DNA of 64,000 nucleotides, from NCBI GenBank assembly GCA_015064555.1, contig SVRZ01000005.1, forward strand, positions 17,619 through 81,618, read 5' to 3'. The notes under the pieces were generated by a model. The model saw only the letters and a list, made by a program, of their open reading frames with translations. It was not told the DNA's origin and ran no database searches. Positions 6,000 through 35,993 of this stretch are shown piece by piece; the stretch's first letter is position 1; each line of letters begins with the position of its first letter. This DNA is from Oscillospiraceae bacterium. Lineage in GTDB: Bacteria > Bacillota > Clostridia > Oscillospirales > CAG-272. The position numbers and the translations under genes are program-made.

Positions 6000-8900
6000 T
6001 TACTTGGCAACAGACTCTCTGTAAGCCTTCGCACTCTCGCAATACTTAGCGAAGCGTGAAACAAGCTTTGTGAGAGCATCGTTATTCTGTGTCGCTGCCC
6101 ATTCGTAATAACATCTGATATGGCAGGAATCGCTCTCACCGTTTACGGTGTAATCAACCGTTTCGGCAAGCTCGTATGCATAGAGCTTAACCTCGAGGTG
6201 TCTGCCGTTCTTATCGCTGCCTTCGGTTGCCGCAACCGCACTACCCTTTATCGAGAATGCGAAATCGGATGCATTATATCCGTCTGCAAGATAGAAGCGA
6301 AGAGCGGGGGTTGCATCGAGGTTATAGGTGACCGCAGTGATGCCGAGCGTGGGCTTTTCGGCACTTCCGCTCATCACGGGTATGCTCGTTTCGTCATAAT
6401 TCTCACCGAGAAGCGCGTCTATCTTTGCCATAGCCTCTGCATCCTCTGTGCCGAAGAATGTGTATGCCGCTCTGATATAGGAAAGAACGTCCTTTACAAG
6501 AGTCTTTTCGGTAGCCGAAGCCGAAGTATCGGAAAGAAGCTTTTCCGCGTACTTGGGAATCGAGAAGGTGAACGTACCTCTCATTACCTTTCCGTCGACG
6601 GTAAGGGTTGCCGTGAGCTTTATCTCTCTTGCCGCTTCTCTTGCACCGAGAGATACGGTTACAAGATAGTAGCCGTCCTTAACGGTAAGAGTCGAGAGGT
6701 CGAGAGCCGCACCGTCAAGGTTAAGAGCGGTGAGATTTGCGTTCATGGGAACGTAGATATTGAATATAAGCTCCGAGCCAAGAGTGATGCTTGACTTGGG
6801 AACGAAGGTCAGAGCCATCTTAGGAGTAAGTCTGTATACGGCTTTACCGTTCGTTGCCGAGGCTTTAACAAATATACACTCGATGCCGTTGGAGGTCTTA
6901 TAGACATTACTTACACCGGGAGCAGTTGCATTTTCGGGGAGGATCAAATCCACTGCATTTTTACCGAAAGCAAGAGTATCCGGAGATCCCTCTCCTTCAA
7001 CGCGCTCGGGACTGAAGGTTGCAAACTCAAAATACTTATCCGCAAATATCTGACCGCCGTTCACGGTAACGTTCACATCAAATTTATTACTGCTGCCGCC
7101 GTCTGCCATACCGAATAGATTTGTGATACTCGCACCCGTCGCATCAAAGGTACAGTCATTGAATACCATATTATACTTAGCGCCGTACGTTCCGTCGCTG
7201 AATGCAACCATAACAAGGCTTCCGCTATGATTGCTCGCGGCGGTGAAGGTTACACTGTCAAACGTTACGTTGAATTCCGCTCCAACGTTCTGCTTATTGT
7301 TGCTGTTAAAGCTGATAGGCGGATTAACCGAATGAGTAGTGTTAAGAGTTCCGTTTTTAACGGTTATATTGGCTGTAAATTCCTTATTATCTCTGCCGGA
7401 AAGATTAAAGAGATGATAGCTTCCTCTTGTAAGCGTATTTCCGTTCAGATCGATCGTAATATACTTCACGGTATAAAGATTCGCCGAGCTTGCGGTAGAG
7501 ATATGATCATCGCGAACGAGAAGCACCGTATTCTTCGATTCACTCGTATCGACCTTTCCGATTGCCTGACAGAAATCGTACCAGGTTGCATATGCCGTGT
7601 TGAAGATTCCGTTTTGGAAGAGCGCAAAGGGATATTTTGTAATATCAGCATACAGGAACGGAATTTCTCCGTATGCTGTAACAACGCTTTCTCCCAGTTC
7701 ATAAACAGCAGTTGTTCCGTCTGTTGAGATCAGCGCATAGCTTATTTTAGCATTACTGTTATAAACGTTTGTCGGTGCCGAGAGCGATGCGGGCATTTCA
7801 ATCTTGGCATATTTACCGTCTTCATTCTTTTCAAACTTCCACGTATCAGCTTCACCTTCGGCATATCCCGTTTTTCTCGTCATGAGCTTTCCGGTAAAGT
7901 CGGCATCGGATAATATTTCTCCGCCCTTGAAGACAACGTGCATTACGTGAGAATTGTTCGCATCAGCACCGGCAACAATGATATTAAAAGCCGAGGTGTG
8001 TGACGTCAGATCGAGCGTACAATTTTCAAATACGACGTCGGTTACACAAAGACCGGCAGCACTATCACCGGCTTCTATTATAGACCAGGTCGTCTTGTGA
8101 GTTATATTAACGTTGGTGAACGTTAATTTAAGATCCTGTCTTACCGATGCAGACTGATTAAGCAAGTTTGCAAGCCTGCGTCCCGCTATAACTATATTAC
8201 CGTTCTTTATATTAACGTTTACGGTATTTGCCTTGGATCCATGGTTGAACTGCATAATTTCCCTGTAGGAATACAACGTGTTACCGCAAAAGTCAACGTT
8301 AAGTGTACCCACAAGCTTATTATAAGTATTCGGTGTAGCGGTTGCTCTGTTTTCAAAATCTCTTCTTAAAACTACGGTAACCACGTCGCCGACATTTGTT
8401 GCGAGAGAAATTGCAGTAGGTATAACGCCTTCATTCTTGGAAGTATTCCAATTATCACCGGCACCTACGCATACCCCACCCTTGAAGATAAGGAAAGGAT
8501 ATGCTTCCTTGTCCAGGTACTCGGTAGGTATTTCACCGTATCCGGGAATATAGTTTTCTATAAGCGTATACGTTGCATTCGTTTCATCAGAGGAGAGCTT
8601 CACAAAAGCAACCCCCTCGCTGTTATAGGTCTTCGTGGGTGCTGCAACGCCCGAGGGCATGGTGAACTTGGTATAATTTCCCTCCGAATCGGGCTCAAAC
8701 CTGAAGGTATCTGCCTCGCCGGCAGGATAACCGGAATTCATCGACATCATGCTATCGGCGAAATTAACGTTTGATACAAATTCTCCGCCCTTGAATACCA
8801 CGTGCATCAAATGCGATTTAGAGGTATCATTATGCGATGTTATAAACGTAAAGGCACTTCCGGTATAATTCGTGAGATCAAACTTACAGTTATCAAATAT

Positions 8901-11900
8901 AATATCAGCGGCGCAAAGACCGGAGGTATTATCAACACCCTCCATCAAACTCCAGTTGGATCTGTAATCTATCGTTATGTCACTGAACGTCAGTTTAAGG
9001 TCTTGTCTTACGGTTGAAGACTGGTTCTGCATTGAAAGAAGACGTCTTGCCGTTATCTTTACAGTGCCGTTATAAATATTGATATTGACGGTGTTGGCAA
9101 CTTTATGATTGAACTGTATCAACTCTCTGACAGTAGTTATAGTATGATCGCCGAGATCTACGTTAAGCGTTCCGACAAGCTGATTATATACGTTAAGCGT
9201 GGTTGTCTGCGTGTGATTATAATCTCTTCTGAGAACAACCGTAACGACATCATCCTTGCTTGATGCCAATTCTATAGCATTAGCTATAACACCGTCGTAT
9301 TTACTTGTATTCCAAGCATCTCCCGCGCCTGCAAATTCACCGTTTTTGAATATAAGGAACGGATATGCCTCAGCATCGGAATACGAGTTGGGGATTATGC
9401 CGTATTCGGTTTCCACTCCGTTGGCATTTTTCCAATTACCGTTCTCATAAGTGTAATAAAACCCGTTTTCAACATTATAATACCGTGCACCGGAAACAGA
9501 AGGAACAAAGGTGGGTTTTCCGCTTCCGCTGTACCACACAACGTCAACTTCTGCAGAACGGATTGCTGCTATATTACCGTCTATAGCTGCAGCAGCGGAT
9601 TCGGCATTTTCGATAGTTACGCTCTCAACGTTTTCAACAGCATAAACAGCCGTTTTTCCGTCAACCGTGGTAGTTCCCGAAACGTAACGATATTCGTTTG
9701 TACCGGTATCACCGCCGGCATTGGTTACTGTTACGGAATAAGAATCCTTTATGTAGAGAGTAGATGTTACACCGGCGGTTGCGGCATTTTTGCCCGTAAT
9801 ACCGGCATATACCGATTTGGTGCTTATCCGATCAGGGCCCGCGCTTAAATTATAACATCCCTCTATAAGATAGGGATACTCCACAGCCTCAGTGGAGGCT
9901 ACATATGGGATCCAGGGAGCTCCTCCGAGTATACCTGCCCAATGAGTGTTTTTGGTCAGAGCTGAAACCTCGAAACAGAGATTTCCATCGTTGTAACAGT
10001 TGCTTATGTGAGCATAGCCTGCATAATCACCGCCCCATTTTGTCGTGGGAGATATGATTCCGGCAATTCCGCCATACATACAGGTTTCGGTTGCGCCGTT
10101 GTCACAGAGAGTCATACTGCCCGTGAAAGCACAGTTGCTTACGGTTGAGTTAAGTCCGAAGCTTCCGACGATACCGCCTCCGATACCGTAATCACCGCCA
10201 AACCTTATGCTCGCGGCAGATGTACAAGCATCGATAACCGTATTATGCGCCATACCGCATACAGACCCGAATCTGCCGCCTCTGGAAGCATTATCAAAAT
10301 TCATACCCGAGAGTGGGGAGATATCGTTTAAAACTATCCTTACGGTGTCTTTTATTTCACAGCCGGAAATAATATTGAATGCGGCAAAATTAGCGTCGGT
10401 AACAAGAGGTGAAGCCGCTCTTCCGACAATTCCTCCGGTAAGTCCCGCGCCTACGATCTCAACGTTCTCGATTACTACGTTTTCAACCGTTGCACCGAAT
10501 ATTACGCCAAACAGACCGTATCCGTATTTAACCGACGATTCGTACGCTCTGCCGAACGGATCTATAGTACCGTTCTTTATAGAATATCCGTTTCCGTCAT
10601 AGTGACCGCCGAATGCCGCCATATCGGATTCGCCGCCGAAATAGTAACCGATAGAGAATATGGACTGACCGTTAAGATCAATATCCTGAGTCTGCTCAAA
10701 ATACATTCCGTCAAGCGATGCGGACGTGCTCATTGAGATCTGCTCTGCCATCCAAAGAAGATTTCCGCCGTTTGCGATCTTATAAGGATCGTTTTCGGTT
10801 CCACTGCCCTCCGGAGATATGGAATTACTCATCCATCCGTCATCTTCTTCAATAATAGGAGCATCAGCCGCAAGATCTATAACCTTCGGATTTTTAAGAT
10901 ATACTTTTCTTACTGTTGAATAATACTCTATTGCCAGCTTATTTCCATCCTCCGAGAAGCGGAACATCGCAACCATCGCGGGAGCTGCGGCATCGCGATC
11001 AATACTCTGTGCGTTTACGAGTACCTGAGTTACGGTATTACCGAAATCTCCTTGCCTTTGCGAATAAACTATTTTATCAACATCGACGTGACCCGCGAGC
11101 ATCAGCTTGACATTTGCATGCTTGCTGACAAGGTTTTCCCAAAGGTATACTCCGCTATTTTTAGTACCGCAGTTTATATCACCGCTGTCAAGCGCAGTAC
11201 CGTCGCAATCAAGATATGCGTGTGTGGTAATAATAACGTTATGATCCTTGTGCTCTTCTCTTGCCAGCACCTCGTTTGCCCATGCAAATACGTTAGCATC
11301 GGCATTATAGGCAATATTCATTATAAGATACTTAGCATTACCTACGGCAAACGTGCGCCAGGTATTATTCACGCTGTTGCTCTTATACATTCCGCCGTGA
11401 TTGACAAACTGCGTAGTATATTCCGTATGTGATGCGAAATACGTATCAAAATCCACACCGTTGTCATGGTTTCCGGCAATAAGCGAATACTCAAGCTTTC
11501 CGTCCATAATGGTAATGGCGTGCTTTGCTACGTCCCACTCTGTAAACGTGCCCGAATCATTTCTTTCGTAATGTCCGCCGCCGGGCTCGGATGCATTTTC
11601 GATAAAAGCAAAGCTGCCTGCAGATGCAACGACTCCGCTTTTATCGGTTATATCGCCAAGACCGATAGAATACTTGATATTTTTCTCATCGATATTATCG
11701 ACGATATAATCGTATATGTAAGGAAGATTCTGAGGATAAAATCTTGTTATCTTCTGAGTATCACCTACGACCGCAAATGAATATGACGGAGCAAAGCCGT
11801 AAGACTTGCGCATTTCTTCCATCTCGGATTCGGAGATCCACGTTTTTTCGTAAAGAACGTCATATCCGTTTCCGCTGTCATCGGTTATATTTTTTCCGAT

Positions 11901-12653
11901 ATCGTTTTCATCAACGTCATAATAGAGGATAATATTATCGGTATCGAGATCGGCTTTGGTCATTGACAGGCCCTTCTCGTAATCAGCCAGGATCTCTGAC
12001 TCGGAGCGAACGTCGGAATATACCGCTACATCTCCAAGACCGCCCTTAAAGCATCCGTAATTGAGCTCTCTGTTATCTCCACCGAAAACAAAGCCGTTAG
12101 TGAGAACCTCTTCACTGATAGAGGAATTGAAATATTTACTCTCTTTTACGGCAGATCCGTTTATGTAACACGAAGCGATGCCGGATACATTGTCATAAAC
12201 GAAGGTAACGTACGCCCATTGATCTGTCGGCACTTTGGCATTTTCAAACTTTACATCATAATGAAGCTTGTTCTCGCCTTTATATTTTTTCTGGACGGAT
12301 ATCGTCGGAACTGCGCCTGCACCAATTGTGAAATCTATGCCGGATTCGCTCAGTCTGCCCTCGGTATTACCTATAATTGCACCAACATCCGACGATGCAA
12401 CCGATGAAGGTATATATACCCAAGCGCTGACCGTTTGAGGCATTTTTTCAAGATGCTTTTGTATTACGTAAGTTGCATCAGGATACGCATACTCAACTTT
12501 ATTGATCGTAAGCTTATCGTTCTGAAACTCAAAAGTAAGTCCCGGAATCTTATTATCCGCTGCTGAAGCAAATACAACCACTGCAGAAACGACTACCGCA
12601 GCAAGAAGCAAGGAAATAAGTAATCTTTTGGACTTAAATGCATTCTTTTTCAT
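6000..12653 (-). CDS. giant secreted multidomain protein 1 (2217 aa): signal peptide, LamG-like lectin, metallophosphoesterase, GLUG-like region, 3 tandem beta-helix-like modules, shared C-terminal domain
   Basis: N-terminus MKKNAFKSKRLLISLLLAAVVVSAVVVFASA. Laminin_G_3-like stretch (VSAWVYIP...CYINGSAV). Metallophosphoesterase motifs VVGDTQK, GLGDITD, AGNHDN, TTHAYLD, LAGHVD. GGIVG/GGIAG/NCY motifs typical of GLUG regions. Domain names come from motif recognition only. Confidence 0.9.
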   Translation of the reverse strand: MKKNAFKSKRLLISLLLAAVVVSAVVVFASAADNKIPGLTFEFQNDKLTINKVEYAYPDATYVIQKHLEKMPQTVSAWVYIPSSVASSDVGAIIGNTEGRLSESGIDFTIGAGAVPTISVQKKYKGENKLHYDVKFENAKVPTDQWAYVTFVYDNVSGIASCYINGSAVKESKYFNSSISEEVLTNGFVFGGDNRELNYGCFKGGLGDVAVYSDVRSESEILADYEKGLSMTKADLDTDNIILYYDVDENDIGKNITDDSGNGYDVLYEKTWISESEMEEMRKSYGFAPSYSFAVVGDTQKITRFYPQNLPYIYDYIVDNIDEKNIKYSIGLGDITDKSGVVASAGSFAFIENASEPGGGHYERNDSGTFTEWDVAKHAITIMDGKLEYSLIAGNHDNGVDFDTYFASHTEYTTQFVNHGGMYKSNSVNNTWRTFAVGNAKYLIMNIAYNADANVFAWANEVLAREEHKDHNVIITTHAYLDCDGTALDSGDINCGTKNSGVYLWENLVSKHANVKLMLAGHVDVDKIVYSQRQGDFGNTVTQVLVNAQSIDRDAAAPAMVAMFRFSEDGNKLAIEYYSTVRKVYLKNPKVIDLAADAPIIEEDDGWMSNSISPEGSGTENDPYKIANGGNLLWMAEQISMSTSASLDGMYFEQTQDIDLNGQSIFSIGYYFGGESDMAAFGGHYDGNGYSIKNGTIDPFGRAYESSVKYGYGLFGVIFGATVENVVIENVEIVGAGLTGGIVGRAASPLVTDANFAAFNIISGCEIKDTVRIVLNDISPLSGMNFDNASRGGRFGSVCGMAHNTVIDACTSAASIRFGGDYGIGGGIVGSFGLNSTVSNCAFTGSMTLCDNGATETCMYGGIAGIISPTTKWGGDYAGYAHISNCYNDGNLCFEVSALTKNTHWAGILGGAPWIPYVASTEAVEYPYLIEGCYNLSAGPDRISTKSVYAGITGKNAATAGVTSTLYIKDSYSVTVTNAGGDTGTNEYRYVSGTTTVDGKTAVYAVENVESVTIENAESAAAAIDGNIAAIRSAEVDVVWYSGSGKPTFVPSVSGARYYNVENGFYYTYENGNWKNANGVETEYGIIPNSYSDAEAYPFLIFKNGEFAGAGDAWNTSKYDGVIANAIELASSKDDVVTVVLRRDYNHTQTTTLNVYNQLVGTLNVDLGDHTITTVRELIQFNHKVANTVNINIYNGTVKITARRLLSMQNQSSTVRQDLKLTFSDITIDYRSNWSLMEGVDNTSGLCAADIIFDNCKFDLTNYTGSAFTFITSHNDTSKSHLMHVVFKGGEFVSNVNFADSMMSMNSGYPAGEADTFRFEPDSEGNYTKFTMPSGVAAPTKTYNSEGVAFVKLSSDETNATYTLIENYIPGYGEIPTEYLDKEAYPFLIFKGGVCVGAGDNWNTSKNEGVIPTAISLATNVGDVVTVVLRRDFENRATATPNTYNKLVGTLNVDFCGNTLYSYREIMQFNHGSKANTVNVNIKNGNIVIAGRRLANLLNQSASVRQDLKLTFTNVNITHKTTWSIIEAGDSAAGLCVTDVVFENCTLDLTSHTSAFNIIVAGADANNSHVMHVVFKGGEILSDADFTGKLMTRKTGYAEGEADTWKFEKNEDGKYAKIEMPASLSAPTNVYNSNAKISYALISTDGTTAVYELGESVVTAYGEIPFLYADITKYPFALFQNGIFNTAYATWYDFCQAIGKVDTSESKNTVLLVRDDHISTASSANLYTVKYITIDLNGNTLTRGSYHLFNLSGRDNKEFTANITVKNGTLNTTHSVNPPISFNSNNKQNVGAEFNVTFDSVTFTAASNHSGSLVMVAFSDGTYGAKYNMVFNDCTFDATGASITNLFGMADGGSSNKFDVNVTVNGGQIFADKYFEFATFSPERVEGEGSPDTLAFGKNAVDLILPENATAPGVSNVYKTSNGIECIFVKASATNGKAVYRLTPKMALTFVPKSSITLGSELIFNIYVPMNANLTALNLDGAALDLSTLTVKDGYYLVTVSLGAREAAREIKLTATLTVDGKVMRGTFTFSIPKYAEKLLSDTSASATEKTLVKDVLSYIRAAYTFFGTEDAEAMAKIDALLGENYDETSIPVMSGSAEKPTLGITAVTYNLDATPALRFYLADGYNASDFAFSIKGSAVAATEGSDKNGRHLEVKLYAYELAETVDYTVNGESDSCHIRCYYEWAATQNNDALTKLVSRFAKYCESAKAYRESVAK
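6811..9404 (-). repeat. three tandem ~288-aa protein modules inside giant 1 (each starts YG-x-IP-x-x-Y...YPF-x-x-F)
   Basis: Module starts YGIIPNSYSDAEAYPFLIFKNG (Tyr codon 9404), YGEIPTEYLDKEAYPFLIFKGG (8540) and YGEIPFLYADITKYPFALFQNG (7673), giving periods of 864 and 867 nt. Modules 1 and 2 align along their full length (VVTVVLRRD..., VRQDLKLTF..., HVVFKGGE...). Confidence 0.7.
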
Positions 12654-20030: not shown

Positions 20031-21053
20031 ATGAAAAAAATAATTACCTTATTGATGCTTATCGCGCTTACGCTTACTGCTACCTCCTGCGAAGGAAAAA
20101 GCACCGCGCGGGTTGCGGTGCTATGGAGCAATATCAGCGATACTGCTAATCTGTCAGATGAATTTGACAATGCGATGCGCTTCAAAAACATAAAGTACAT
20201 ACGCTATGACGCAAAGGGCAGCGAAGCAGCTCTTATCAAGCAAGCGCAGGAGGCTATCGGAAACGGTTCGCCGGCGCTTATCGTAAACTGCAGGTATGAT
20301 ACCACCGCCGCAGCGGTAATAGCCTTGGCAAAGAGTGCAGGGATCCCCGTCATTTTTATGGCATCCAATGTTTCTGCCGAAGCTCTTTCGCTTTACGATA
20401 AGTGCTATTCGGTGGCATCTGACAGCTCTGCTCTATATGAAACACTCGGCGAGCGCATAGCAAAGGACGTTATTAATCGCTATGAAAAATACGACCAAAA
20501 CGGTGACGGAAATATAAGCTACGTTGCATTCGGATTTGCCGCGACGGCAGCTATAACGATTAACGAGAGATTGAACGAAGCCGGCCTTCCCCATCTTATG
20601 CCGATCGCTCACGATCCTCTTAAAACCGAGGCTGAAAATATAACCTCTATCTTTTCCGGCTATATCGGCCCGAGCAATCCTCCGGTTGAGCTTATTATAA
20701 CCCCCAATGACGATGCTATTGAGGAGCTGCTTCTCGCCCTGCGAGATCACGGATTTAACCGAAAAAGCCCGAAAACCGATCTCATCCCTCTTTATACCGT
20801 CGGCGCCTCTGCAAACGCAGGTAAGCTTATCGACACCAAGGACGAAGAGGAGCGCGAGGCTTACTCGGTTATGAGCGCTATCGACGATGGATTCCTCTCC
20901 GCGGCGGCTCTCGAGGACGATGATACCCTCGCAAAAACCGCAGCCCGCGTTCTCCGTAACCTCCTTAAGGACAAGGACGCTTTCGCAAAGATCGATAAAT
21001 CCCTTACTCCCGAAGGAAATCAGGTTTCGGTCAAGTATACTATATACGGTTGA
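20031..21053 (+). CDS. lipoprotein, periplasmic-binding-protein type I (sugar-binding-like) fold, 340 aa; no adjacent ABC permease or ATPase
   Basis: Lipobox LTATSC. The alternating beta-alpha pattern (RVAVLWSN...IKYIRYDAKG...QAQEAIGNGSPALIVN...GIPVIFM) resembles MglB/RbsB-type binding proteins. The family call is tentative. Confidence 0.6.
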   Translation: MKKIITLLMLIALTLTATSCEGKSTARVAVLWSNISDTANLSDEFDNAMRFKNIKYIRYDAKGSEAALIKQAQEAIGNGSPALIVNCRYDTTAAAVIALAKSAGIPVIFMASNVSAEALSLYDKCYSVASDSSALYETLGERIAKDVINRYEKYDQNGDGNISYVAFGFAATAAITINERLNEAGLPHLMPIAHDPLKTEAENITSIFSGYIGPSNPPVELIITPNDDAIEELLLALRDHGFNRKSPKTDLIPLYTVGASANAGKLIDTKDEEEREAYSVMSAIDDGFLSAAALEDDDTLAKTAARVLRNLLKDKDAFAKIDKSLTPEGNQVSVKYTIYG

Positions 21054-21091: not shown

Positions 21092-21138
21092 AGAGCCTGC
21101 CTGAGATGCATTTCGCATCTCAGGCAGGCTCTGTTTTT
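21092..21138. terminator. bidirectional rho-independent terminator
   Basis: Perfect 18-bp stem AGAGCCTGCCTGAGATGC / GCATCTCAGGCAGGCTCT with a 5-nt loop, followed by GTTTTT. Confidence 0.75.
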
Positions 21139-21376
21139 AACTAAGACTGCCAGTTAGTATAACTTTTATAGCATAGGTAATCATTGCAACAAATGTAAAA
21201 ATAAAGTAAATTGTACGATGCGTATCGAAATCCAGCGGAGGATTAAATATGTTGAAAAATCGTTCTGCGGCATTTTCACCTAAAAGAATTTCTGTTACAA
21301 AAAACGGAGAGCCAAGAACTAGCACTGCAATAGATATAAAATTAATCACAGAAATTATCGTTTTAATAACTGTCAT
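21137..21376 (-). CDS. small two-TM membrane protein, 79 aa (hypothetical)
   Basis: Internal start MTVIKTIISVINFISIAVLVLG... at 21376 with AGGGGGG upstream. The longer track ORF would overlap the upstream gene by 77 nt. The region is AT-rich. Confidence 0.4.
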   Translation of the reverse strand: MTVIKTIISVINFISIAVLVLGSPFFVTEILLGENAAERFFNIFNPPLDFDTHRTIYFIFTFVAMITYAIKVILTGSLS

Positions 21377-21416
21377 ACTAATGACCCCCCTATTGTAAGC
21401 TGTAGAAATACTTTCT

Positions 21417-21737
21417 CTATCGAGTAGCGTAAAAATAGTTCCCCCTGAAATTCTTCTGCACGTTTTCATCCGAATCAAAATGAAAATCAACATCTTTGAC
21501 CGGGCTCGGAAAATAACCGTTATCCTTCAAGTAATTGATGAAGATTTCTTTTATTTGCTTCTTGGCATCATCTGTTATCAAGCTCAATTCCTTTTCTGTT
21601 TTCCAATAAATAAATGCCATATACGAGTTGTCGAAGTCAAAATAGAAATCTAAAATTTTGAAAATCTTAAAATTATAATTTTGATTCAAAATATTCATCA
21701 TCTTATCAGCCGTCTTATCAGCCGTAAATGGACTCAT
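21417..21737 (-). CDS. hypothetical 106-aa cytoplasmic protein (immunity-protein-like by context)
   Basis: ATG at 21737 preceded by AAGGAG. It lies immediately downstream of the RHS-core remnant. No family was recognised. Confidence 0.5.
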   Translation of the reverse strand: MSPFTADKTADKMMNILNQNYNFKIFKILDFYFDFDNSYMAFIYWKTEKELSLITDDAKKQIKEIFINYLKDNGYFPSPVKDVDFHFDSDENVQKNFRGNYFYATR

Positions 21738-21809
21738 AGGTTAAAATCTCCTTTTATAACAACCCCAAATGCATCAGTTCTTTGAGATAAGAATTAGTGT
21801 ATTCGGTGC

Positions 21810-21992
21810 TCAATTTAACAAATTTCCTTCCGGATCTGCATACATCACAGGATTGTTACTGCAATAAGCATACAGGTTATAGCTATTCAGATCACCGTTG
21901 GCGCCGAGGTAAGATGGTGCATCCGGCGAAATAAACCTACCTGTTCTACCGTCGTAGTATCTTGAATTTAGGTAATAGATTTCAATGACTTT
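21810..21992 (-). pseudogene. orphan RHS/YD-repeat core tip (no start codon, no toxin domain)
   Basis: Own translation: (R)KVIEIYYLNSRYYDGRTGRFISPDAPSYLGANGDLNSYNLYAYCSNNPVMYADPEGNLLN*. YYDxxxGRFxxxD plus NxYxYxxNNPxxxxDPxG is the conserved end of RHS shells. In-frame TGA and TAA lie just upstream. Confidence 0.7.
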
Positions 21993-22713
21993 TCTTTATC
22001 AAAATCACAATAGCCAATATGAAGACAACGGAATAAGTCATATCAAAATACTGAATCAGAACGCACAGACCATCGTCATTATAAATGCATTCAGCATCAG
22101 ATGCATCGGATGAATAAATTTTAATGTATGAATCTTCCAGTGTTGGGGCTGTGAAATAAGGAGGAAGTTCTAACACAAGCTGATTATTGTCGCCCAGATA
22201 GAATGCTTTTGTTTCATATAACCCACGATTTAATTCTGCTAATTCATCTTTTTTTTCATCATACTCTTCAAAAGATAAATAATCAGAATCTATTTCCTCT
22301 CCGTTTTTGTTGATGCGGAGATAATTTCTGCAACGAGAAGCTATCAATTCAATTTCATCATTTCCTATAGCGCCGCAATAAACGGTGGTTCCGTATGTTA
22401 CATTTATAATTAGAGTGTGTGAATATGTGCCGTTTTCATCGTAGATTACTACATTGTTACCAAATCTTACAAAAAACGACCCATCATCCCAAGCATCGGC
22501 CTGATCAAATGTTTCTTTTCTATTTTTTACTATATTTTGATAGATAGAGTCTTCATTTGTAAAATACTCTTCGTTCGTTACAGTAATTATAAAAGAAACA
22601 GTTTCTTCTAAGTCAGGTGGTTGGGATGGTGTTAACAAATCAAATTCAAATATTAATAACCCCAAAATAAGTATTACAACTAAATTTCTTAAAATATTAC
22701 TGATTTTATCCAT
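21982..22713 (-). CDS. hypothetical 243-aa protein with N- and C-terminal TM helices
   Basis: N-terminal ILRNLVVILILGLLIF and C-terminal VVFILAIVILI hydrophobic helices. AT-rich codon usage differs from the neighbouring genes. Confidence 0.55.
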   Translation of the reverse strand: MDKISNILRNLVVILILGLLIFEFDLLTPSQPPDLEETVSFIITVTNEEYFTNEDSIYQNIVKNRKETFDQADAWDDGSFFVRFGNNVVIYDENGTYSHTLIINVTYGTTVYCGAIGNDEIELIASRCRNYLRINKNGEEIDSDYLSFEEYDEKKDELAELNRGLYETKAFYLGDNNQLVLELPPYFTAPTLEDSYIKIYSSDASDAECIYNDDGLCVLIQYFDMTYSVVFILAIVILIKKSH

Positions 22714-22753
22714 GAAACAGCCTTCTCCTTCGCGTCATACACATTAAATGATA

Positions 22754-23155
22754 TTAAGGTTTAATTATTCCTCTTGCGATAGAGTTATCGTAAATAAGCC
22801 TGAGGAAGGAATATACACCAAAAACAACAAATTCATATCTCCAGAACCAGGACTCCGGAAAGAAAATATCGCATATCAGAAAGCAAGCACTTGTAAAAAT
22901 AGTAATTGCTGCGTGTATATAGGATAGATACGCCATAAATCTATAGTCCGGCTCGTAATATTCTTTAAAGGCAAATACCCAAAACATTCTTTGGAAGAAG
23001 GACCAATTTTTCTTGTAGTGCTTGTAGGCTCTGTTCCAGGATTTTCCGTGCCCATGCCTTCTGCGATAAGCACACGCTATAAATACGGCTCTGGCGTAGA
23101 GATCACAGAATAGAAAGCAATAGATATGCCCTCCAACCATAGCGAATCTGTACAT
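22754..23155 (-). CDS. hypothetical 133-aa membrane protein
   Basis: Hydrophobic, aromatic-rich ORF in the AT-rich island. No family was recognised. Confidence 0.4.
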   Translation of the reverse strand: MYRFAMVGGHIYCFLFCDLYARAVFIACAYRRRHGHGKSWNRAYKHYKKNWSFFQRMFWVFAFKEYYEPDYRFMAYLSYIHAAITIFTSACFLICDIFFPESWFWRYEFVVFGVYSFLRLIYDNSIARGIIKP

Positions 23156-23544
23156 ATACCGTTATGATTCCTCCTGTATCATCAATTGAGGTATCTAACA
23201 AAGCACCCGTACCTCCGATAATAGCATTGCCGATAATCTGTCCAGGAAGTTCTTTTCATACCGGGGCGCATACCCCTGGGGCAAGGTAAGATACGCAAAA
23301 GAGCACAGAACCACCGTGTCCGACGGTGATTCAAGGCAAGCGAACCTTATCCGAATAAGGCCTCGCTTGCGTAAGAAAACGCGCGGATAGATCTCCTATG
23401 CTCTAAATTTATTATACATTAAATGGAATTTTTTCGCAATAGCTTTTTATCGCCTGCGATGTAAAAATTTAAGGAAAATTTTTGTGCATATTACCGAAGC
23501 ACCGGAAGTAGGCAGGCGATATAGCATTTTTTTACAGAACCGAT

Positions 23545-23615: not shown

Positions 23616-24167
23616 CTATGTAGCAGATCTTTTTTCAAGCCTTGTAATAAGGCGGGAAAGAGGCTCTATAAGAAAGCCTACGGCGAAATTGCCTGCGGCA
23701 TGGATAGCATCGAATGGAAGTCCCGCTATGATCCAGGCTATCATTCCGCGAAGATCAAGCCCGAACATCACCGCCTGAGCCGGGGCATAGAGCGTTCCGT
23801 AAAGGAGTCCGTGGAGCGCACATACCACCGGATAAACCATACACGCGGTACGCGCATTCATATTCCTTGGCAGGAGCATAGTCACTCCCCAGAGCAGAGT
23901 CCATATATAAAGATACGGAACCCACCACATATTGAAGCCGGCGTAAAGCCCGTTGAGCAGCACGTAGATATAGATAGGTATCAGCGCCTTTTTGCGGTAG
24001 ACTATGGTATAGGTCATAGTCAGCGCGCCTAAAAGATGAACGTTCGGAATAGCCTCCATCACCAGCTTGGATATAAGCATTATAGCTCCCAGCATAGGGA
24101 AGATCACCATCTCACGAACGGTTATCCTTGCTTTATTTTGTGTACGTAAGCTCATAATGACCGCCAT
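23616..24167 (-). CDS. ECF-transporter S component (substrate-capture subunit), probably cobalamin-related by context
   Basis: Small protein (183 aa by the track start) with about six hydrophobic helices and a C-terminal LPFDAIHAAGNF motif typical of ECF S components. It overlaps the upstream DUF4430 gene. The start is ambiguous (24167 or 24155). Confidence 0.6.
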   Translation of the reverse strand: MAVIMSLRTQNKARITVREMVIFPMLGAIMLISKLVMEAIPNVHLLGALTMTYTIVYRKKALIPIYIYVLLNGLYAGFNMWWVPYLYIWTLLWGVTMLLPRNMNARTACMVYPVVCALHGLLYGTLYAPAQAVMFGLDLRGMIAWIIAGLPFDAIHAAGNFAVGFLIEPLSRLITRLEKRSAT

Positions 24168-30148: not shown

Positions 30149-33100
30149 TTATCCGAGATACTTAGATACCGCGGCACTATAGGCAGCAGCATCGCCGTCC
30201 GACGCCGCACAGATCTCTATATCATAGAGGAATACGTTCATCTGAAGAGCGCCTATATTGAAGCGTGCAAGATTGGGAGTATCAAACTGCTGAACTAGCA
30301 CGCCGTTTATATACCAATATGCCTTGCCTTCATTTACAACTATAGCCCACTCAAGCGTAATACCATTGGTAGCATCGTAGATATTAGCGCAGTCGGCATC
30401 GCTTTGTTGTCCGTTATACATATAGCCTGCGCCAAAGGTACCGTTGCTGTCGCTATCCCAGAGCAGGAATCTGCAGCCACTAGCAAAGCTGAACTGAAGA
30501 TGTCCGTTTGTGCCGAACTTTGTAATGTCAAGCTTACCGCTTACAACATAGTTGTTGGTAAGTGCATTTCCCGATGCATCGGTGTAGGTTCTGCCGCTTG
30601 CGGTTATATCGCCGCCCTGGCCGTATTTCTGTATGCTGAGCGCATTTTCAAGATATCTTGCCGCCTCAACAGAATACAAATCTGCATTCTCCGATTTTAC
30701 AAATATCTCAATATTTGAAACAGTAACGTTCATATTCTGCGCGCCGATATTGAATTTATCAAGAGTGGGAGCCGCAAAGATCTTCATAAGCTCGCCGTTG
30801 ATGTACCAATATGCCTTGCCTTCATTCACAACAACTGCCCACTCAAGGATAAGACCGTTGGTGGTATCATAGGTAGCAATCTTTGCCGTGTTCTCATTGG
30901 TGTGCTTACCGTTTTCCTGATATCCTATTCCTATATCTCCCAAACTATCAGAATCCCAGAGGATAAATCTGTTGCCGCTGCCCACAAGGAACTGAAGGTG
31001 CGCATTGTTCTTCTTGAGCTCGGTAATGTTAAGAATACCTCTTACAACGTAGTTGTTGGTGAGCGCTTTTCCGGAAGCATCGGTGAAGGTCTTTCCGTTG
31101 GCGGTTATATTGGAATTATTATCGTAATGCTGCAGGTCAACGCCAAGAGCAGAATATTTCGCTACCTCGGCGTAATAAGCAGCCTCATCCTCTGCCTTTA
31201 CGTAAATCTCAATATCCGAGAACAGAGCATTCATCTGAACAGCGCCTACGATAAAGTACTCAAGATTCGGAGTCGCAAATCTCTTTTCAAGATTGCCGTT
31301 TATATACCAGTACGCCACACCGCTGTTGACGACCACGGCAAAATCAAGAGTAAGTCCGTTGCTCGCATCATAGAGCGTAATGCCGGATTCGGTATCGCTC
31401 ACGTGAGAGTTATTCTCGGTGTAGCCGGCGCCAAGCTTGCCGTCGTTATTGCTGTCCCAGAGAAGGAACCTGTAGCCCGAGCCAAGCCTGATCTGAATAT
31501 AAGGATTATCCTTGCCGATAGCACTGATATCGAGCTTGCCCTTTATTACGTAATTATCGGTAAGATCATCTCCGCTTGCATCGGTGAAGGTCTTGTTGGT
31601 AACAGATACGCAACCCGAGGTCTCAAGGTTTACAACGTCACCCACATAGCGAGCAGCATGAGCGTTGTATGCCGCCACGTCATCCGGGTCGTCCGACTTC
31701 ACGCTGACCTCTACGTCGTAGACAATGGAGTTCGCGTTTTCACCGCCGATAAGGAAGTATGCGGGGGTGTAGGACTCGAACGTATGCACAAGCTGTCCGT
31801 TGATATACCAATAAGCCTTTCCGCTTTCATCGGTTATAACCGCCCAGTTTATAACAAGGCCGTCATTTCCGTCATAAAGAGTTTTTACCGTATTATCGCT
31901 TGCGCTTCCGTTGCCAAGATATCCTGCGGCGAATTTTCCGTCGCCATTTATATCCCAGAAAACGAATCTGTAGTTCTGATGCATTCTGAAATGAACGTAT
32001 ACGTTAGCGCCCGGAGTATAGTGAGTAATAACGAGTTTTCCGCTCGCTACGAAGGGACCGGTAATATCATTGCCGTTTTTATCCTTGTATTTGATTGCCG
32101 AAAGACCGTTGATGTAAGCCGCATCACTGCGAGTGACGCCTCTCGCCTCGTCCAGGGCAAGCTTCATAAGATCGTATGCAACAAGGCTGGGATGCGAAGC
32201 ATCCGATGAGGGATACATATTCTTATTGATGGTTTCGTTATTGCCGTAGAAGATCGGAGTGGTATCAACGTATACCAGCCAATCGGTGCTCTCAGCGAGT
32301 GCCTTTATTGCCGCATTTACCGCAGGAGCCTTAACGAAGGAGGACTCGTAGCGGTTGGAATTCTCATCATCGGCAGTCTTCTTGGGATCAACGCTGAAGT
32401 AATAGATCTTAGCCTCGGGAAGCCTTGCGTGATATTCATTGAACAATGCAGTCAATCTCGCAACGAACTCATCCACGGTAAGAGAGCCGTGATGCATATC
32501 GTTGTGACCGATATGAACTACTATCTCCTTCGGCTCCATAGGATAAACGATACGCTCGGAGGCTATCTCAAGCTGATGTATCTGAGAGGAGGAGAGTCCC
32601 ATAAGGAATGCCTTTTCTCCTGCGAAGTCCTGATAGAAGTCCTTCCAGAAAGGAGGCGTCTCCATCGTGTAGCCGTCAAAGTAAGAGTCACCGACAAAGA
32701 TCGTTGCACCCTTATTCTCTTCCTTTATTATGTTTTCCTCATAGTACTGAATCTTCGTTTCGGCATTTATATTGCCGTTATAGGTCGATACCTTGACCGT
32801 AGCGGTCGCGGTATGATATTCGGTGGTGGCGGTAACAGTTACGTTCACCGCAGAATTGAATATTCCCTTTGCGAATATCTTGCCGTTCTCAACGAATACG
32901 TTGGGGGTATCGGTTGTGTAGGTAACCGAGCCGTTATACCAGGATTCGCTGAATACAGGGATTATATCCTTGCCGGGATAGTTCGAATATATCTCGGTGG
33001 GTGCGGTGAGCGTCATCGTTCCGTATGCATTGGGATCGGGATCCTTAATGCCGCAGAGCGTGCATTTGCCCATCGCAAATTCGTGCTGACAGCTATCGAT

Positions 33101-35776
33101 ATCATTGACCTTATCTCTGTAATCCGCGGCACTCTCGCAATACCTTGCGAAGCGCTCGACAAGCTTTACAAGGTTATCGTTATTCTGAGTCTTTGCCCAT
33201 TCGTAGTAGCACCTGATATGGCAGGAGTCGGACTCTCCATTCACGGTGTAGTCAACCGTTTCTGCCATTTCGTATGCATAGAGCTTTACCTCAACGTACT
33301 TGCCGTTTTCGTCAATGCCCTCCTCTGCCGAAACCGCACTACCATTTATTGAGAATGCAAAGTCGGATGCCGTAAAGCCGTCTGCCAGATAGAATCTGAG
33401 TGCCGGCTTAGCCGTGAGGTTGTAGGTCACGGACTTGATACCGAGAGTGGGCTTATCTGCACTGCCGTTCATCACGGGAGCACTGCTTTCATCATAATTC
33501 TCACCAAGGAGTGCATCGATCCTCGCCATAGCCTCGGCATCGGTCGTGCCAAAGTATGCGTACGCTGCTCTTATGTAAGAAAGAACGTCCTTGACGAGAG
33601 TTTTTTCGAGATCGGTAAGAAGATTGTCATCATCGACGATCTTCTTTGCATACTTCGGAATCGAGAAGGCGAACGTGCCCTTCATTACCTTGCCGCCAAC
33701 GCTGAGTGTTGCAACAAGCCTGATCTCTCTTGCCGCCTCACTTGCTCCGAGCGGAACGGTAACAAGACAGTAGCCGTCCTTTTCGGTAAGAGCCGAAATA
33801 TCAAGAGCCGCACCGTCAAGGCTGATGGCGGTAAGCTCCGGAATGTTCGGAACGTAGATATTGAATACAAGCTCCGAGCCAAGTATGATGCTTGCCTTGG
33901 GAACAAACGTCGATGCCGCCTTCGGAGCAAGTCCGTAAGTCGCGGTGACTCCGTTATCGGATGACTTTACGAATACGAGCTCTCCGCCGTTTACCTCACT
34001 CACAGCCGGCTTTTTCGCCGAAGGTATCTCGAGGGTGGTATAATTGCCGCCCTCAGGCTTTGTTAAGGTGATCGAGGAGCCGGCATTTGCATTCTCCATC
34101 TCCGCGAAAACGATCTGCGAGCCGGAGGTGATGATCTTACCGCCGCTTATTTTAGCGGTGGTCGTACAATGCGCGTCGGTCATATCAAACATATTGAGAG
34201 TATAGGATATTTTCGAAAGATCGAATACGCAATTGTTGAAGGTGATGTTAAGGAACTGCGTGGGATCTGCCGCCGCGAATGAGTTATAGCAGATGAGGTC
34301 GGTTGTGGTCGCACCTTCCGCGAGGGCGATGGTCACTCCGTCGAAGGTGAAGTTGAAGCCATTGCCTCCGGGATATTTGCCACTGGGATTCCAGCTCGAA
34401 AGCTTCATAAGAGCAGTTGAGCCAAGAACAACCTTACCGTTCTTTACTGTAATATTGGTATCGTAAGCAGTCTTTTTCTGCGCCGAGAACATAATTCTGT
34501 CGGTCGAGGTGAACGTAAAGCCGTTTAAATCGAGTGTAACACCGTATGTCTGGCTTAAGTTATTATACTGACTTTCCGCATAGGTGAAATCGCGGCGCAT
34601 AAGGATAACAGAGCCTGCCGCCTTTGAGCTGTGGAGCGCGCTGGCGGTCGCATCCTTAGCGAACAGCCCATATGCACCCACGAAGCTTCCGTTACGGAAC
34701 ACTGCGAAGGGGTATTTATCAACATCCTTATAGCTGCCGGGAATTACACCGTAAGGAGTTATGATCTCGCTGACGGTAAGCTCATATTTATCGGTCGAGC
34801 CCTCCACCTTGGTGAAGCAGACCCTGCTGCCTCCGTCCTCGGTGAGGAAGGTATCCGTGATAGGCTCATAGTCACCCTTTACGGTGAGAGTGGGAAGGCT
34901 GCCGTCAGAGCCGACACCCACAAGAAGACTCTCGTTGCTGTTGCCGTCATAAAGGGTTATATGAGCAAGATCTGCGGTTATTATCTCTCCGCCGTTGATC
35001 CTGACGTCAACGTTGAGCACGTTGTTTCCGTCTGCCGCGGCAAATACCGTCATATTCTTATCCGTTCTGGTATAGCCCGAGAGATCAATAGTGCAATCAT
35101 TTAACGTAATAACCGTTCGGGTGCCGCACGTGCTTGCATTACCCGTCCAGGTGGTGTGAATAAGGTGTCCCCAGAAATCGCCCGTGGTGCCGGCGCTTTC
35201 CGAAACTCCGATGGTTATACCATCGTAGGTCACGTCGAATTTCTTTTCACCCGCATCGGTGCCTGTAAAGATCTGAGTATCAACAAATGCGATCATACCC
35301 ATAAGCATCTTGCCGTTGGTGATCTTTATCTTTGTGGTATAAGACGCCACAGGATAATCAGCTACAAGATCAAGACCTGTATACTCGTTTGTGAAGGTGT
35401 GACCTCCGAGGTCAATAAGTATATTGGTCGCCGTGTTTATTGATGGCGGAGTGCCGTTATTGTAGTTGGTAAAGTCGCGTCTTAAAAGAAGCTGCGCCTC
35501 GTGCTCGGTATGTTCCTCGCCGCTTACCGCATTCTGGAGAGCATATAATGCATCCTTCCAGGTGGAGTAAGCACCAACGAACCGATTCTCGGAGAATACC
35601 GCAAGCGGGAACGCATCTGCATCGGCATATTCATCACCGATAGTACCGTACGTTGTCACAAGATCTGCATCCGAGTTTCCGCTGTCGCTCGCAAGCACGG
35701 GGATAACACCGCATATGCAAAGCGCAACGAAAAGCAAAAGAAATGTCAGACGTCTGATGATTTTATGCTGGTTCAT
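30149..35776 (-). CDS. giant secreted multidomain protein 2 (1875 aa): signal peptide, 2 beta-helix-like modules, shared ~270-aa domain (internal here), Cys knuckle, Ig-like segment, SGNH/GDSL hydrolase, 4 LamG-like repeats
   Basis: Start MNQHKIIRRLTFLLLFVALCICGVIPVLA at 35776 (AGGAAG upstream); the track start at 35842 is an extension. SGNH blocks FVGDSYFDG, HIGHNDM and SDASHPS. Shared domain FVPKASIILGSELVFNIYVP...RFARYCESAADYR. Confidence 0.9.
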   Translation of the reverse strand: MNQHKIIRRLTFLLLFVALCICGVIPVLASDSGNSDADLVTTYGTIGDEYADADAFPLAVFSENRFVGAYSTWKDALYALQNAVSGEEHTEHEAQLLLRRDFTNYNNGTPPSINTATNILIDLGGHTFTNEYTGLDLVADYPVASYTTKIKITNGKMLMGMIAFVDTQIFTGTDAGEKKFDVTYDGITIGVSESAGTTGDFWGHLIHTTWTGNASTCGTRTVITLNDCTIDLSGYTRTDKNMTVFAAADGNNVLNVDVRINGGEIITADLAHITLYDGNSNESLLVGVGSDGSLPTLTVKGDYEPITDTFLTEDGGSRVCFTKVEGSTDKYELTVSEIITPYGVIPGSYKDVDKYPFAVFRNGSFVGAYGLFAKDATASALHSSKAAGSVILMRRDFTYAESQYNNLSQTYGVTLDLNGFTFTSTDRIMFSAQKKTAYDTNITVKNGKVVLGSTALMKLSSWNPSGKYPGGNGFNFTFDGVTIALAEGATTTDLICYNSFAAADPTQFLNITFNNCVFDLSKISYTLNMFDMTDAHCTTTAKISGGKIITSGSQIVFAEMENANAGSSITLTKPEGGNYTTLEIPSAKKPAVSEVNGGELVFVKSSDNGVTATYGLAPKAASTFVPKASIILGSELVFNIYVPNIPELTAISLDGAALDISALTEKDGYCLVTVPLGASEAAREIRLVATLSVGGKVMKGTFAFSIPKYAKKIVDDDNLLTDLEKTLVKDVLSYIRAAYAYFGTTDAEAMARIDALLGENYDESSAPVMNGSADKPTLGIKSVTYNLTAKPALRFYLADGFTASDFAFSINGSAVSAEEGIDENGKYVEVKLYAYEMAETVDYTVNGESDSCHIRCYYEWAKTQNNDNLVKLVERFARYCESAADYRDKVNDIDSCQHEFAMGKCTLCGIKDPDPNAYGTMTLTAPTEIYSNYPGKDIIPVFSESWYNGSVTYTTDTPNVFVENGKIFAKGIFNSAVNVTVTATTEYHTATATVKVSTYNGNINAETKIQYYEENIIKEENKGATIFVGDSYFDGYTMETPPFWKDFYQDFAGEKAFLMGLSSSQIHQLEIASERIVYPMEPKEIVVHIGHNDMHHGSLTVDEFVARLTALFNEYHARLPEAKIYYFSVDPKKTADDENSNRYESSFVKAPAVNAAIKALAESTDWLVYVDTTPIFYGNNETINKNMYPSSDASHPSLVAYDLMKLALDEARGVTRSDAAYINGLSAIKYKDKNGNDITGPFVASGKLVITHYTPGANVYVHFRMHQNYRFVFWDINGDGKFAAGYLGNGSASDNTVKTLYDGNDGLVINWAVITDESGKAYWYINGQLVHTFESYTPAYFLIGGENANSIVYDVEVSVKSDDPDDVAAYNAHAARYVGDVVNLETSGCVSVTNKTFTDASGDDLTDNYVIKGKLDISAIGKDNPYIQIRLGSGYRFLLWDSNNDGKLGAGYTENNSHVSDTESGITLYDASNGLTLDFAVVVNSGVAYWYINGNLEKRFATPNLEYFIVGAVQMNALFSDIEIYVKAEDEAAYYAEVAKYSALGVDLQHYDNNSNITANGKTFTDASGKALTNNYVVRGILNITELKKNNAHLQFLVGSGNRFILWDSDSLGDIGIGYQENGKHTNENTAKIATYDTTNGLILEWAVVVNEGKAYWYINGELMKIFAAPTLDKFNIGAQNMNVTVSNIEIFVKSENADLYSVEAARYLENALSIQKYGQGGDITASGRTYTDASGNALTNNYVVSGKLDITKFGTNGHLQFSFASGCRFLLWDSDSNGTFGAGYMYNGQQSDADCANIYDATNGITLEWAIVVNEGKAYWYINGVLVQQFDTPNLARFNIGALQMNVFLYDIEICAASDGDAAAYSAAVSKYLG
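30152..32116 (-). repeat. four tandem ~160-170-aa jelly-roll (LamG/ConA-like) repeats at the C-terminus of giant 2
   Basis: The recurrent pattern TFTDASG..LT.NYV..GKL.I........LQF....G.RF.LWDS...G..G.GY.....(E/S)GKAYWYING.L...F..P.L..F.IGA..MN....IEI occurs four times to the stop codon. Confidence 0.75.
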
Positions 35777-35798
35777 TTTTTTCTTCCTTTCACAGATA

Positions 35799-35827
35799 AT
35801 TCTAAAAATCGAAGGGTAAAACCGCAA
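35799..35827 (-). promoter_or_regulatory. possible internal promoter for giant 2
   Basis: On the minus strand: TTGCGG (35827-35822), 17-nt spacer, TAGAAT (35804-35799), about 22 nt upstream of the ATG. Confidence 0.35.
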
Positions 35828-35993
35828 ATTGCGAACTTTCATTTACAAATATGTGGTTTTATTTATCGGTCGGTCGTCATGATCCTCGGGCGCGGAAAGC
35901 TTTCCGCTATCCCCGATTCTTTATTAAGCATTATCCGGCACCGATGCAAACAGATCTTCATCCTGTCGCATCTGATTTTTCGTCGCAACGGGA

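Follow-up and report, generated by a model that had tools for sequence, protein, structure and literature searches.

Genes and Features of the Island

The stretch of DNA analysed here, referred to below as the window, comprises 64,000 nucleotides of contig SVRZ01000005.1 (positions 17,619 to 81,618 of the forward strand; assembly GCA_015064555.1), which belongs to an uncultured Oscillospiraceae/Ruminococcaceae metagenome-assembled genome (MAG) from the ruminant gut. The subject is an AT-rich island of ~2.1 kb on its minus strand (~21130–23260, in window coordinates), located between the binding-protein gene (20031–21053) and a 183-aa membrane-protein gene (23616–24167), which holds four small open reading frames (ORFs) and, between and beside them, relics of RHS polymorphic-toxin genes. 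In the direction of reading, these are a relic of a C-terminal toxin domain (CT1, 23172..23255), orf133 (22754..23155), orf243 (21982..22713), the tip of an RHS repeat-associated core (21810..21992), the remnant of a second toxin domain (CT2, 21754..21822), orf106 (21417..21737) and orf79 (21137..21376). All four ORFs are intact and co-oriented, each of them has a Shine-Dalgarno site, and together they are flanked by a promoter-like site on one side and a strong terminator hairpin on the other. The truncations and deletions all fell in toxin or delivery sequence and none of them in the four ORFs or their ribosome-binding sites.

The GC content of 21133–23258 is 0.349, which is the minimum among 619 overlapping 2.1-kb windows (mean 0.477, standard deviation 0.036). 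In ten independent metagenome contigs from several samples, the island was found 99.4–100% identical and with the same junctions. These ten concordant contigs speak against an assembly artefact, which is rejected, and contradict a longer gene hidden by assembly error. In GenBank, the proteins of the island are MBE6634875–MBE6634878 with locus tags E7617_01565–01580, listed under "MAG: Ruminococcaceae bacterium" and Oscillospiraceae.

The RHS Core Tip

The tip (21810..21992, minus strand) runs from the last YD repeat to the DPEG motif. Translation of 21810–22040 (minus) reads stop-LIPLSSYWLL-stop-F-stop-stop-RKVIEIYYLNSRYYDGRTGRFISPDAPSYLGANGDLNSYNLYAYCSNNPVMYADPEGNLLN-stop, with three in-frame stops within 12 codons upstream of the tip and another stop four codons past DPEG. 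The 60 residues encoded by 21813–21992 (minus) match the NCBIfam profile TIGR03696 (Rhs_assc_core) with E = 4.4e-15 and 56 bits, against a curated cutoff of 32.5, over profile positions 29–75 of 76; a match to Pfam TEN_YD-shell is faint. The terminal DPxG motif, present as PVMYADPEGN, aligns with the motif of four related loci (L020, L095, L099 and L103), and in DNA the tip is 86–92% identical to the tips of L095, L099 and L103. The closest tips, with 78–81% amino-acid identity, were found in Clostridia MAGs of goat, sheep and deer gut.

A preliminary description of this region, made by a model from the letters of the DNA, had recognized in the tip the end of an RHS shell that lacks a start codon. 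Translation reproduces the peptide that it quoted, along with the upstream in-frame stops and the four residues past DPEG, the hidden Markov model search with TIGR03696 bears out the assignment, and no ATG, GTG or TTG was found in frame. Its account of the surroundings was equally accurate: the ORFs and their hydropathy agree with a 243-aa ORF with two transmembrane (TM) segments, a Shine-Dalgarno-led 106-aa ORF and two further small membrane ORFs, the GC profile agrees with the higher AT content, and a tblastn search with an 1837-aa RHS, taken with the families of the large ORFs, agrees with the absence of an rhs gene from the 64 kb.

As it stands, the tip is neither a functional RHS/YD-repeat protein, as a long YD-repeat shell upstream in one frame with a start is missing, nor a functional RHS toxin, as no C-terminal toxin domain follows DPxG. 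GenBank annotates it as a 58-aa hypothetical CDS (MBE6634876.1), the start of which is a non-canonical codon in place of an isoleucine; this CDS is a pseudogene fragment. The dN/dS ratio of the tip is 0.10, from which it follows that the tip was probably constrained for most of its divergence and that its decay is comparatively recent. The RHS homology begins at 21985–21992, right at the stop codon of orf243, where GATAAAGA is common to both partners. This suggests that the 5′ end of the tip is another microhomology junction, in addition to the one described next.

The Deleted Toxin CT2 and orf106

DNA comparison with an intact orphan module, L095, resolves what happened on the 3′ side of the tip. 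Two blocks of the window align to it, 21979–21819 with L095 915–1075 (86.4%) and 21831–21390 with L095 1544–1978 (80.1%), with 13 nt of the window common to both. The overlap (21819..21831, minus) marks a deletion junction with the microhomology GGAAA..ATTTG. Between short direct repeats, the window lacks 481 bp of the toxin-coding DNA of L095: at the junction the window has GATCCGGAAGGAAATTTG joined directly to TTAAATTGAGC, while the L095 counterpart has GGAAATTTG followed by the toxin, and GGAAAAACATTTG just before TTAAATTGAG. As 481 mod 3 is 1, the deletion shifts the reading frame. The NLLN and stop past DPEG are therefore an out-of-frame reading of the last codons of CT2. The remnant of CT2 itself (21754..21822, minus), consisting of the last 22 codons, FVKLSTEYTNSYLKELMHLGLL, and the stop, is homologous to toxin ORF ends; it lies out of frame with the tip and aligns to the toxin C-termini of L093, L094, L095 and L098 with 64–68% identity over 25 aa. 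On the 3′ side of the deletion, the Shine-Dalgarno site and orf106 are unchanged.

orf106 (21417..21737, minus; Shine-Dalgarno AAAGGAG) is intact and encodes a soluble protein, with zero TM segments by hydropathy, that belongs to a small family with 49–75% identity among homologues. In every homologue locus with enough sequence (L093, L094, L095 and L098), the orf106 homologue starts 17–18 nt past an ORF that comprises a complete Rhs-associated core (TIGR03696, 67–82 bits) and a toxin, the ~183-aa C-terminal domain of which is of one conserved type. In L096 and L097, the next orphan follows the orf106 homologue. Because of the fixed adjacency to toxin ORFs of the CT2 type, orf106 is taken as the putative cognate immunity gene of this type, and its product as the putative immunity protein of the deleted toxin CT2. 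Over 104 codons, the dN/dS ratio relative to the L095 homologue is 0.27, indicating evolution of orf106 under purifying selection relative to that homologue. The AlphaFold2 model of orf106 has a predicted local distance difference test (pLDDT) score of 69.7, and Foldseek of the model against PDB returned nothing below E = 0.07 and no known immunity fold. Intact toxins of the CT2 type, with tips 87–92% identical in DNA, occur in related metagenomes (L095, L103).

Several side observations concern this part of the island. The 5′ end of orf106 (21701–21724, minus) contains a perfect 12-nt tandem duplication (TCTTATCAGCCG twice), encoding TADKTADK, which is not present in the homologues. In L093, L094, L095, L098 and L103, a hydrophobic glycine-rich stretch (PFF..TAAVDYIPDKEFDLHWGWYV) common to all five follows right after DPxG, and the C-terminal domains beyond it differ, as between L095 and L103. 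Such a layout suggests a variable warhead behind a conserved pre-toxin or translocation segment, with no match to a curated family for either of the two. In L093 (10671–15489), the orphan RHS module with the orf106 homologue lies beside a rolling-circle Rep (REP_ORF2-G2P), a tyrosine integrase and a serine recombinase, which hints that integrative elements can carry RHS orphan modules along.

The CT1 Relic and orf133

The second toxin relic, which the preliminary description had overlooked, lies at the other end of the island. The CT1 relic (23172..23255, minus, with a stop upstream at 23256–23258) retains 26 codons (23249–23172, minus; LPGQIIGNAIIGGTGALLDTSIDDTG) from the toxin domain at the C-terminus of an RHS gene now lost, directly 5′ of orf133. 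They are 62% identical to residues 1722–1747, in the post-core toxin region, of the full-length RHS of L020, the E value being 0.002 when the whole window is searched and 3e-4 in a search of 1.6 Mb of loci.

L020, from a water-deer rectum Clostridia MAG, carries a full-length RHS of at least 1837 aa in which the core motif is followed by a glycine-rich C-terminal domain. After 5 nt comes a 161-aa membrane ORF, then an orphan of 260 aa (shell end, tip and another toxin) and a 141-aa ORF, which is the canonical order of an RHS locus. The CT1 relic is syntenic with L020, as it stands directly 5′ of a homologue of the gene downstream of that RHS. This homologue is orf133 (22754..23155, minus), an intact membrane protein gene with the Shine-Dalgarno site AGGAGG. 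Its product is 50.5% identical to that of the 161-aa ORF over 95 aa (E = 6e-28) and has at least two TM segments by hydropathy; no Pfam or NCBIfam family was found for it. On these grounds, orf133 is proposed as a putative immunity protein for CT1, and the CT1 relic indicates that a full-length rhs gene once stood at the locus.

orf79 and an RHS Locus of the Same MAG

orf79 (21137..21376, minus; start as given by the gene callers), with two TM segments, occupies the distal end of the island. A longer ORF of 118 aa (21137–21493) was discarded and the start at 21376, giving 79 aa, preferred, as the N-terminal part of the longer one overlaps orf106 and just the 79-aa part is conserved. A paralogue of orf79 (P0044, E7617_06920), 90% identical, is present in the same MAG at the far end of an RHS locus, L099. 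There an RHS 3′ end of 359 aa or more, which runs off the contig, comes first, a membrane ORF of 139 aa second and the orf79 paralogue last. The L099 tip and the window tip are identical in amino-acid sequence, with 91.6% DNA identity over 154 nt, and the orf79 block (window 21400–21129, L099 1690–1979) is 87% identical over 290 nt, with the homology stopping at 21129, at the terminator hairpin. The search of the same genome for an rhs 3′ core matching the relic, which the preliminary description had proposed, thus has an answer: the MAG has at least one RHS-type gene, represented by its 3′ end, with such a core. An immunity role of orf79 is unsupported by homology. We note here that the contigs L099–L102 of this MAG also carry an unclassified toxin and break within the RHS shell, as expected of a repeated gene.

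orf243 and a Second Islet

orf243 (21982..22713, minus) encodes, according to hydropathy and AlphaFold2, a bitopic membrane protein with an ectodomain resembling beta-propeller blades. Strong TM segments lie at residues 3–31 and 215–241. The 12 representatives of the family at 50% clustering measure 228–253 aa, and all have an N-terminal and a C-terminal hydrophobic helix. The model (pLDDT 84.6, pTM 0.77) has a beta-rich ectodomain, for which Foldseek gave just local PDB matches, to propeller blades of the NHL/WD40 type with TM-scores of 0.2–0.28, and no known immunity fold. Sequence searches of Pfam, NCBIfam and PDB found no curated family. Two variants of the N-terminal part were observed. 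In L013, a 2.9-kb metagenome contig, 100% identity with the window over 2632 nt gives way to an abrupt in-frame switch (L013 1–316, window 22570) into an unrelated, open N-terminal extension of orf243 of 105 codons, and in P0002 the N-terminal part is of a third kind, joined near residue 128. The two variants may be either real mosaics or chimeric assemblies.

A paralogue of orf243 (P0022, E7617_00680) is found in a second AT-rich islet of the same MAG (L181–L186, E7617_00675–00685; GC 0.31–0.39), between a DAHP synthase gene and an ABC transporter. This islet also holds a 161-aa membrane ORF, a 25-codon relic of an RHS YD repeat (L182 3981–4055; 76% identical to the RHS of L104) and a 133-aa lipoprotein. 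Homologues of this lipoprotein, 166 aa long, come immediately after RHS toxin ORFs at 15 or more loci; one of these is L116, where the 1719-aa RHS has its end at 10978 and the ORF of the lipoprotein its start at 10997. L181 is without the lipoprotein gene, so that the second islet varies between strains. Both orf243 and orf79 probably travel with loci of this kind.

Promoter-Like Element, Leader and Terminators

Both islets are preceded by the same non-coding element of 147 nt (23353..23498, minus), window 23498–23353 being 91% identical to L182 3153–3299. It is far better conserved than the orf243 paralogues, the DNA identity of which is 71%. Within it lies a sigma-70-like promoter, TTGCGA-17-TATAAT (23411–23439, minus), with 10 of 12 positions matching, the best such site of the region. 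The 111 nt of 23296..23406 (minus) fold with a minimum free energy of −46.7 kcal/mol (z = −4.74 against 200 shuffles) and look like a small RNA or an attenuating leader; this putative structured leader ends in a terminator-like hairpin with a U-run (23308–23332, minus), and its conservation in L182 is confined to the 5′ half. The element is a candidate promoter/leader. As rhs paralogues typically share 5′ regions, it may once have been the promoter of rhs and now drive the immunity genes; alternatively, it could be a repeated intergenic element. At its other end, the island is closed by a perfect 18-bp inverted repeat (21092..21132, unstranded), a bidirectional terminator-like hairpin that also closes the convergent binding-protein gene.

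Rfam gave no match in the island or the leader at gathering or E-value thresholds, and no tRNA was found. No recombinase or mobile-element genes, and no integrase, were found among the ORFs of the island or its flanks, nor flanking direct repeats beyond chance.

Rest of the Window and Related Genomes

The tblastn search of the 64 kb with the 1837-aa RHS found just the tip and one short relic. The large ORFs of the window are without RHS identity; they encode 2217 aa (no family), 1897 aa (GDSL), 2830 aa (Big_5) and 1220 aa (UvrD/AddA-like). The 2217-aa ORF (6000–12653, minus) has zero Pfam or NCBIfam matches and is conserved in the metagenome contigs of this species. The GDSL lipase domain belongs to the ORF at 30149–35842 and the Big_5 domain to that at 36157–44649.

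In the survey of related genomes, 79 loci with the tip were retrieved, containing 124 tip occurrences. Full-length RHS proteins, that is, tips ending ORFs with at least 1000 codons upstream, accounted for 33 of these and bounded orphans for 66, and 23 tips were cut by contig ends. Typical tails past the tip measure 120–475 aa; tails of at most 25 residues, i.e., tips without a toxin, were seen in 6 of the 124. Bounded orphans alone, with no rhs within 8–10 kb upstream, were present in 8 of the 79 loci. L064 and L083 combine a toxin-less tip with the absence of rhs nearby, and small ORFs follow toxin-less tips in other genomes too. Orphan arrays are thus abundant in these Clostridia, and the window is a clear but ordinary example.

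These results revise the preliminary description at several points. It had regarded the absence of a nearby rhs gene as unusual, which the counts of loci with orphans only and of toxin-less tips contradict. What it had called a toxin tip has no toxin, as this was removed by the 481-bp internal deletion read against L095, and displacement of RHS C-termini, to which it had attributed the pattern, does not by itself explain a state produced by a deletion with microhomology. Of its immunity-like small ORFs, orf133 and orf106 are upheld by homology and orf243 and orf79 are not. Its proposal of a relic or a reservoir of immunity genes fares well, as homologues of orf133 and orf106 stand directly downstream of RHS toxin ORFs elsewhere. 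The comparison of strains that it had suggested was one-sided: the island is present in all contigs with the flanking genes and no island-free strain was found.

Interpretation and Competing Explanations

We consider it likely that the island is the remnant of the 3′ end of an RHS polymorphic-toxin locus plus one downstream orphan module, in which the immunity genes have been retained. The delivery gene and both toxin domains have been lost by truncation and deletion, and the ORFs in immunity position are intact: CT1 is reduced to the 26 codons 5′ of orf133, and the orphan module to 53 codons from the end of the shell plus the final 23 codons (stop included) of CT2. As orf133 is a membrane protein, its probable target is a membrane-acting, glycine-zipper-rich toxin of the CT1 type, which it would neutralize; as orf106 is soluble, its probable target is a toxin of the CT2 type acting in the cytoplasm. 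If both proteins neutralize these toxins, the cell would therefore stay resistant to RHS toxins from relatives in the same gut community while making neither toxin itself, and would be spared the cost of a toxin and the risk of self-intoxication. The island relic probably still protects against the toxins of neighbours.

A number of points weigh against this reading. The immunity roles are read from conserved gene adjacency and nothing else, and sequence searches of Pfam, NCBIfam and PDB found no curated family for the four ORFs or for either toxin type. The CT1 relic is short and glycine-rich, and its E values are 0.002–3e-4. No member of the orf243 family was found in 167 RHS-centred loci (1.6 Mb); an immunity role of orf243 is unsupported for this reason. 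orf106 is apparently not among the NCBI proteins of the MAG, in which there is no locus tag between E7617_01565 and 01570. As to expression, a terminator-like hairpin separates the promoter-like site from the island, and promoter-like sites are not enriched, 10 having been found against 9.2 expected in shuffles. Moreover, an empty-site strain was not found, every contig with the flanking genes having the island, and these contigs are near-clonal, so that conservation within the species is weakly informative on selection.

The same facts may be explained by neutral decay, in which a dying RHS remnant has no current function and the ORFs are intact since too little time has passed. The two toxin relics and the truncated tip would look the same in that case, the near-clonality of the carriers provides no population evidence of selection, the low dN/dS of the tip fits a recent truncation, and orf106 is apparently left uncalled in the NCBI annotation. 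Nevertheless, the damage is selective, having struck toxin and delivery sequence only and spared four ORFs with their ribosome-binding sites, and the omega of 0.27 between orf106 and its L095 homologue points to purifying selection. The outcome was the same at the second islet of this genome, and other genomes repeatedly have small ORFs behind toxin-less tips, which makes purely neutral decay an unlikely account. We give somewhat more room, while still regarding it as rather improbable, to the notion that the 147-nt element and an orf243-family gene are the original islet, with a function other than immunity, into which RHS fragments and immunity genes were recombined secondarily. It would accommodate the co-occurrence of element and orf243 paralogue at two loci of one MAG, the absence of the family from the 167 RHS loci, and the abutment of the tip on the orf243 stop codon at the shared GATAAAGA. 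However, RHS relics and homologues of RHS-adjacent genes are present in each of the two islets, so that the association with RHS debris is recurrent, and no independent function is known for the orf243 family.

Homology to L099 on both sides of the deletion brings in a further role, that of a recombination reservoir, with the tip (91.6% over 154 nt) and the orf79 block (87% over 290 nt) as homology arms for cassette swaps with the active RHS locus of the same genome, for which the orphan rhs modules in Salmonella are a precedent (PMC3967940, PMC3150448). Yet the cassette between these arms has no toxin to donate, only the immunity gene being transferable, and the identity is modest for homologous recombination; we hold this role to be very unlikely. 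That the tip is a genuine 58-aa gene, as the GenBank entry MBE6634876.1 would have it, or that a longer rhs gene has been broken up by an assembly or frameshift error, is barely conceivable: the annotated start replaces an isoleucine by a non-canonical codon, translation would yield two thirds of a shell-closing domain without a shell, three in-frame stops precede the tip, the junctions are identical in ten independent contigs, and a gap of 481 bp relative to L095 exceeds sequencing-scale error.

The retention of immunity genes from an RHS locus might also be part of something more general. It is doubtful, and put forward with reserve, that islets of this kind are a recurring, selected architecture in gut Clostridia, equipped with a promoter and purged of the rhs delivery gene and the toxin domains. 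In such islets the 147-nt element would have been kept as the rhs promoter/leader to drive the immunity genes, and the membrane beta-propeller proteins of the orf243 family would be a generic, uncharacterised defence component. If true, such islets would be a Gram-positive counterpart of the Bacteroidales AID clusters (see below), arising by in-situ decay.

Comparison with Known Systems

Orphan rhs-CT/rhsI and cdiA-CT/cdiI modules downstream of rhs and cdi genes were described in Enterobacteria by Poole et al. 2011 (PMC3150448) and Koskiniemi et al. 2014 (PMC3967940) and are thought to serve as an immunity repertoire and a recombination reservoir. The island resembles these modules in having a core fragment up to the demarcating motif without a translation start and, behind it, a small ORF that has a ribosome-binding site of its own, and in being AT-rich relative to the genome. 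Unlike them, it has had its toxin part deleted by a frame-shifting loss of 481 bp, it has no adjacent full-length rhs gene, and its host belongs to the Gram-positive-type gut Clostridia. Measured against an orphan rhs-CT/immunity module in the sense of Poole et al. 2011, therefore, the core fragment without start signals and the small conserved ORF in immunity position are present, while the toxin CT is not retained and the location is not downstream of a full-length rhs. The description of orphan immunity genes fits better: orf133 and orf106 are homologous to toxin-adjacent genes, and both local toxins are reduced to relics. Poole et al. (PMC3150448) asked why orphan toxin fragments are usually kept if cells merely collect immunity genes, and the island speaks to this question, as the toxin fragments here were not kept.

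That immunity outlasts the effector is also known from the orphan immunity arrays of the Vibrio cholerae type VI secretion system (T6SS) (Kirchberger et al. 2017, PMC5361080) and from orphan Rhs immunity in Serratia (PMC10539506). There, too, short 3′ remnants of effectors are kept and protection against non-kin has been proposed. Those arrays, however, sit inside active T6SS effector loci, whereas in the island the delivery gene is gone and the RHS toxin domains are unclassified. Stand-alone, toxin-free immunity genes are found in the acquired interbacterial defence (AID) and recombinase-associated AID (rAID) clusters of gut Bacteroidales (Ross et al. 2019, 10.1101/471110; Azhieh et al. 2025, PMC12247911), which are compositionally foreign and protect against the contact-dependent toxins of neighbours; the island resembles them in gene content and composition and would protect in the same way. 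In contrast to rAID clusters, the island has no recombinase or mobile-element genes and does not count as one of them, and in contrast to both kinds it has only two credible immunity genes and visibly derives from the in-situ decay of a toxin locus and not from cassette capture. Protection by orphan immunity has been demonstrated in V. cholerae, Serratia and Bacteroidales (PMC5361080, PMC10539506, 10.1101/471110, PMC12247911).

The lost parent gene belongs to the family of WapA/YD-repeat and type VII secretion system-associated Rhs toxins of Bacillota (PMC12704120, PMC10327511), which combine a YD-repeat shell and a DPxG-terminated core with a polymorphic toxin at the C-terminus and have an immunity gene downstream. 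Unlike these toxins, the island keeps the last two thirds of the core domain and is without the N-terminal region that would show the export route.

Set beside these systems, the island provides a base-pair-resolved example of the passage from a contact-dependent toxin locus to an immunity-only locus: toxin sequence was lost twice, independently, once by a 481-bp deletion flanked by microhomology, and the immunity genes are untouched. With it, orphan-immunity biology, for which Proteobacteria and Bacteroidales have been the main subjects of study, reaches uncultured Oscillospiraceae of the ruminant gut, and three unannotated families, those of orf106, orf133 and the L095-type toxin, stand out as toxin and immunity candidates. 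The island is thus a further example of the known orphan-immunity relics, derived from an rhs orphan array, and its points of interest are modest ones: the resolved deletion, the second toxin relic, the uncharacterised families, and the recurring 147-nt element with the orf243 family.

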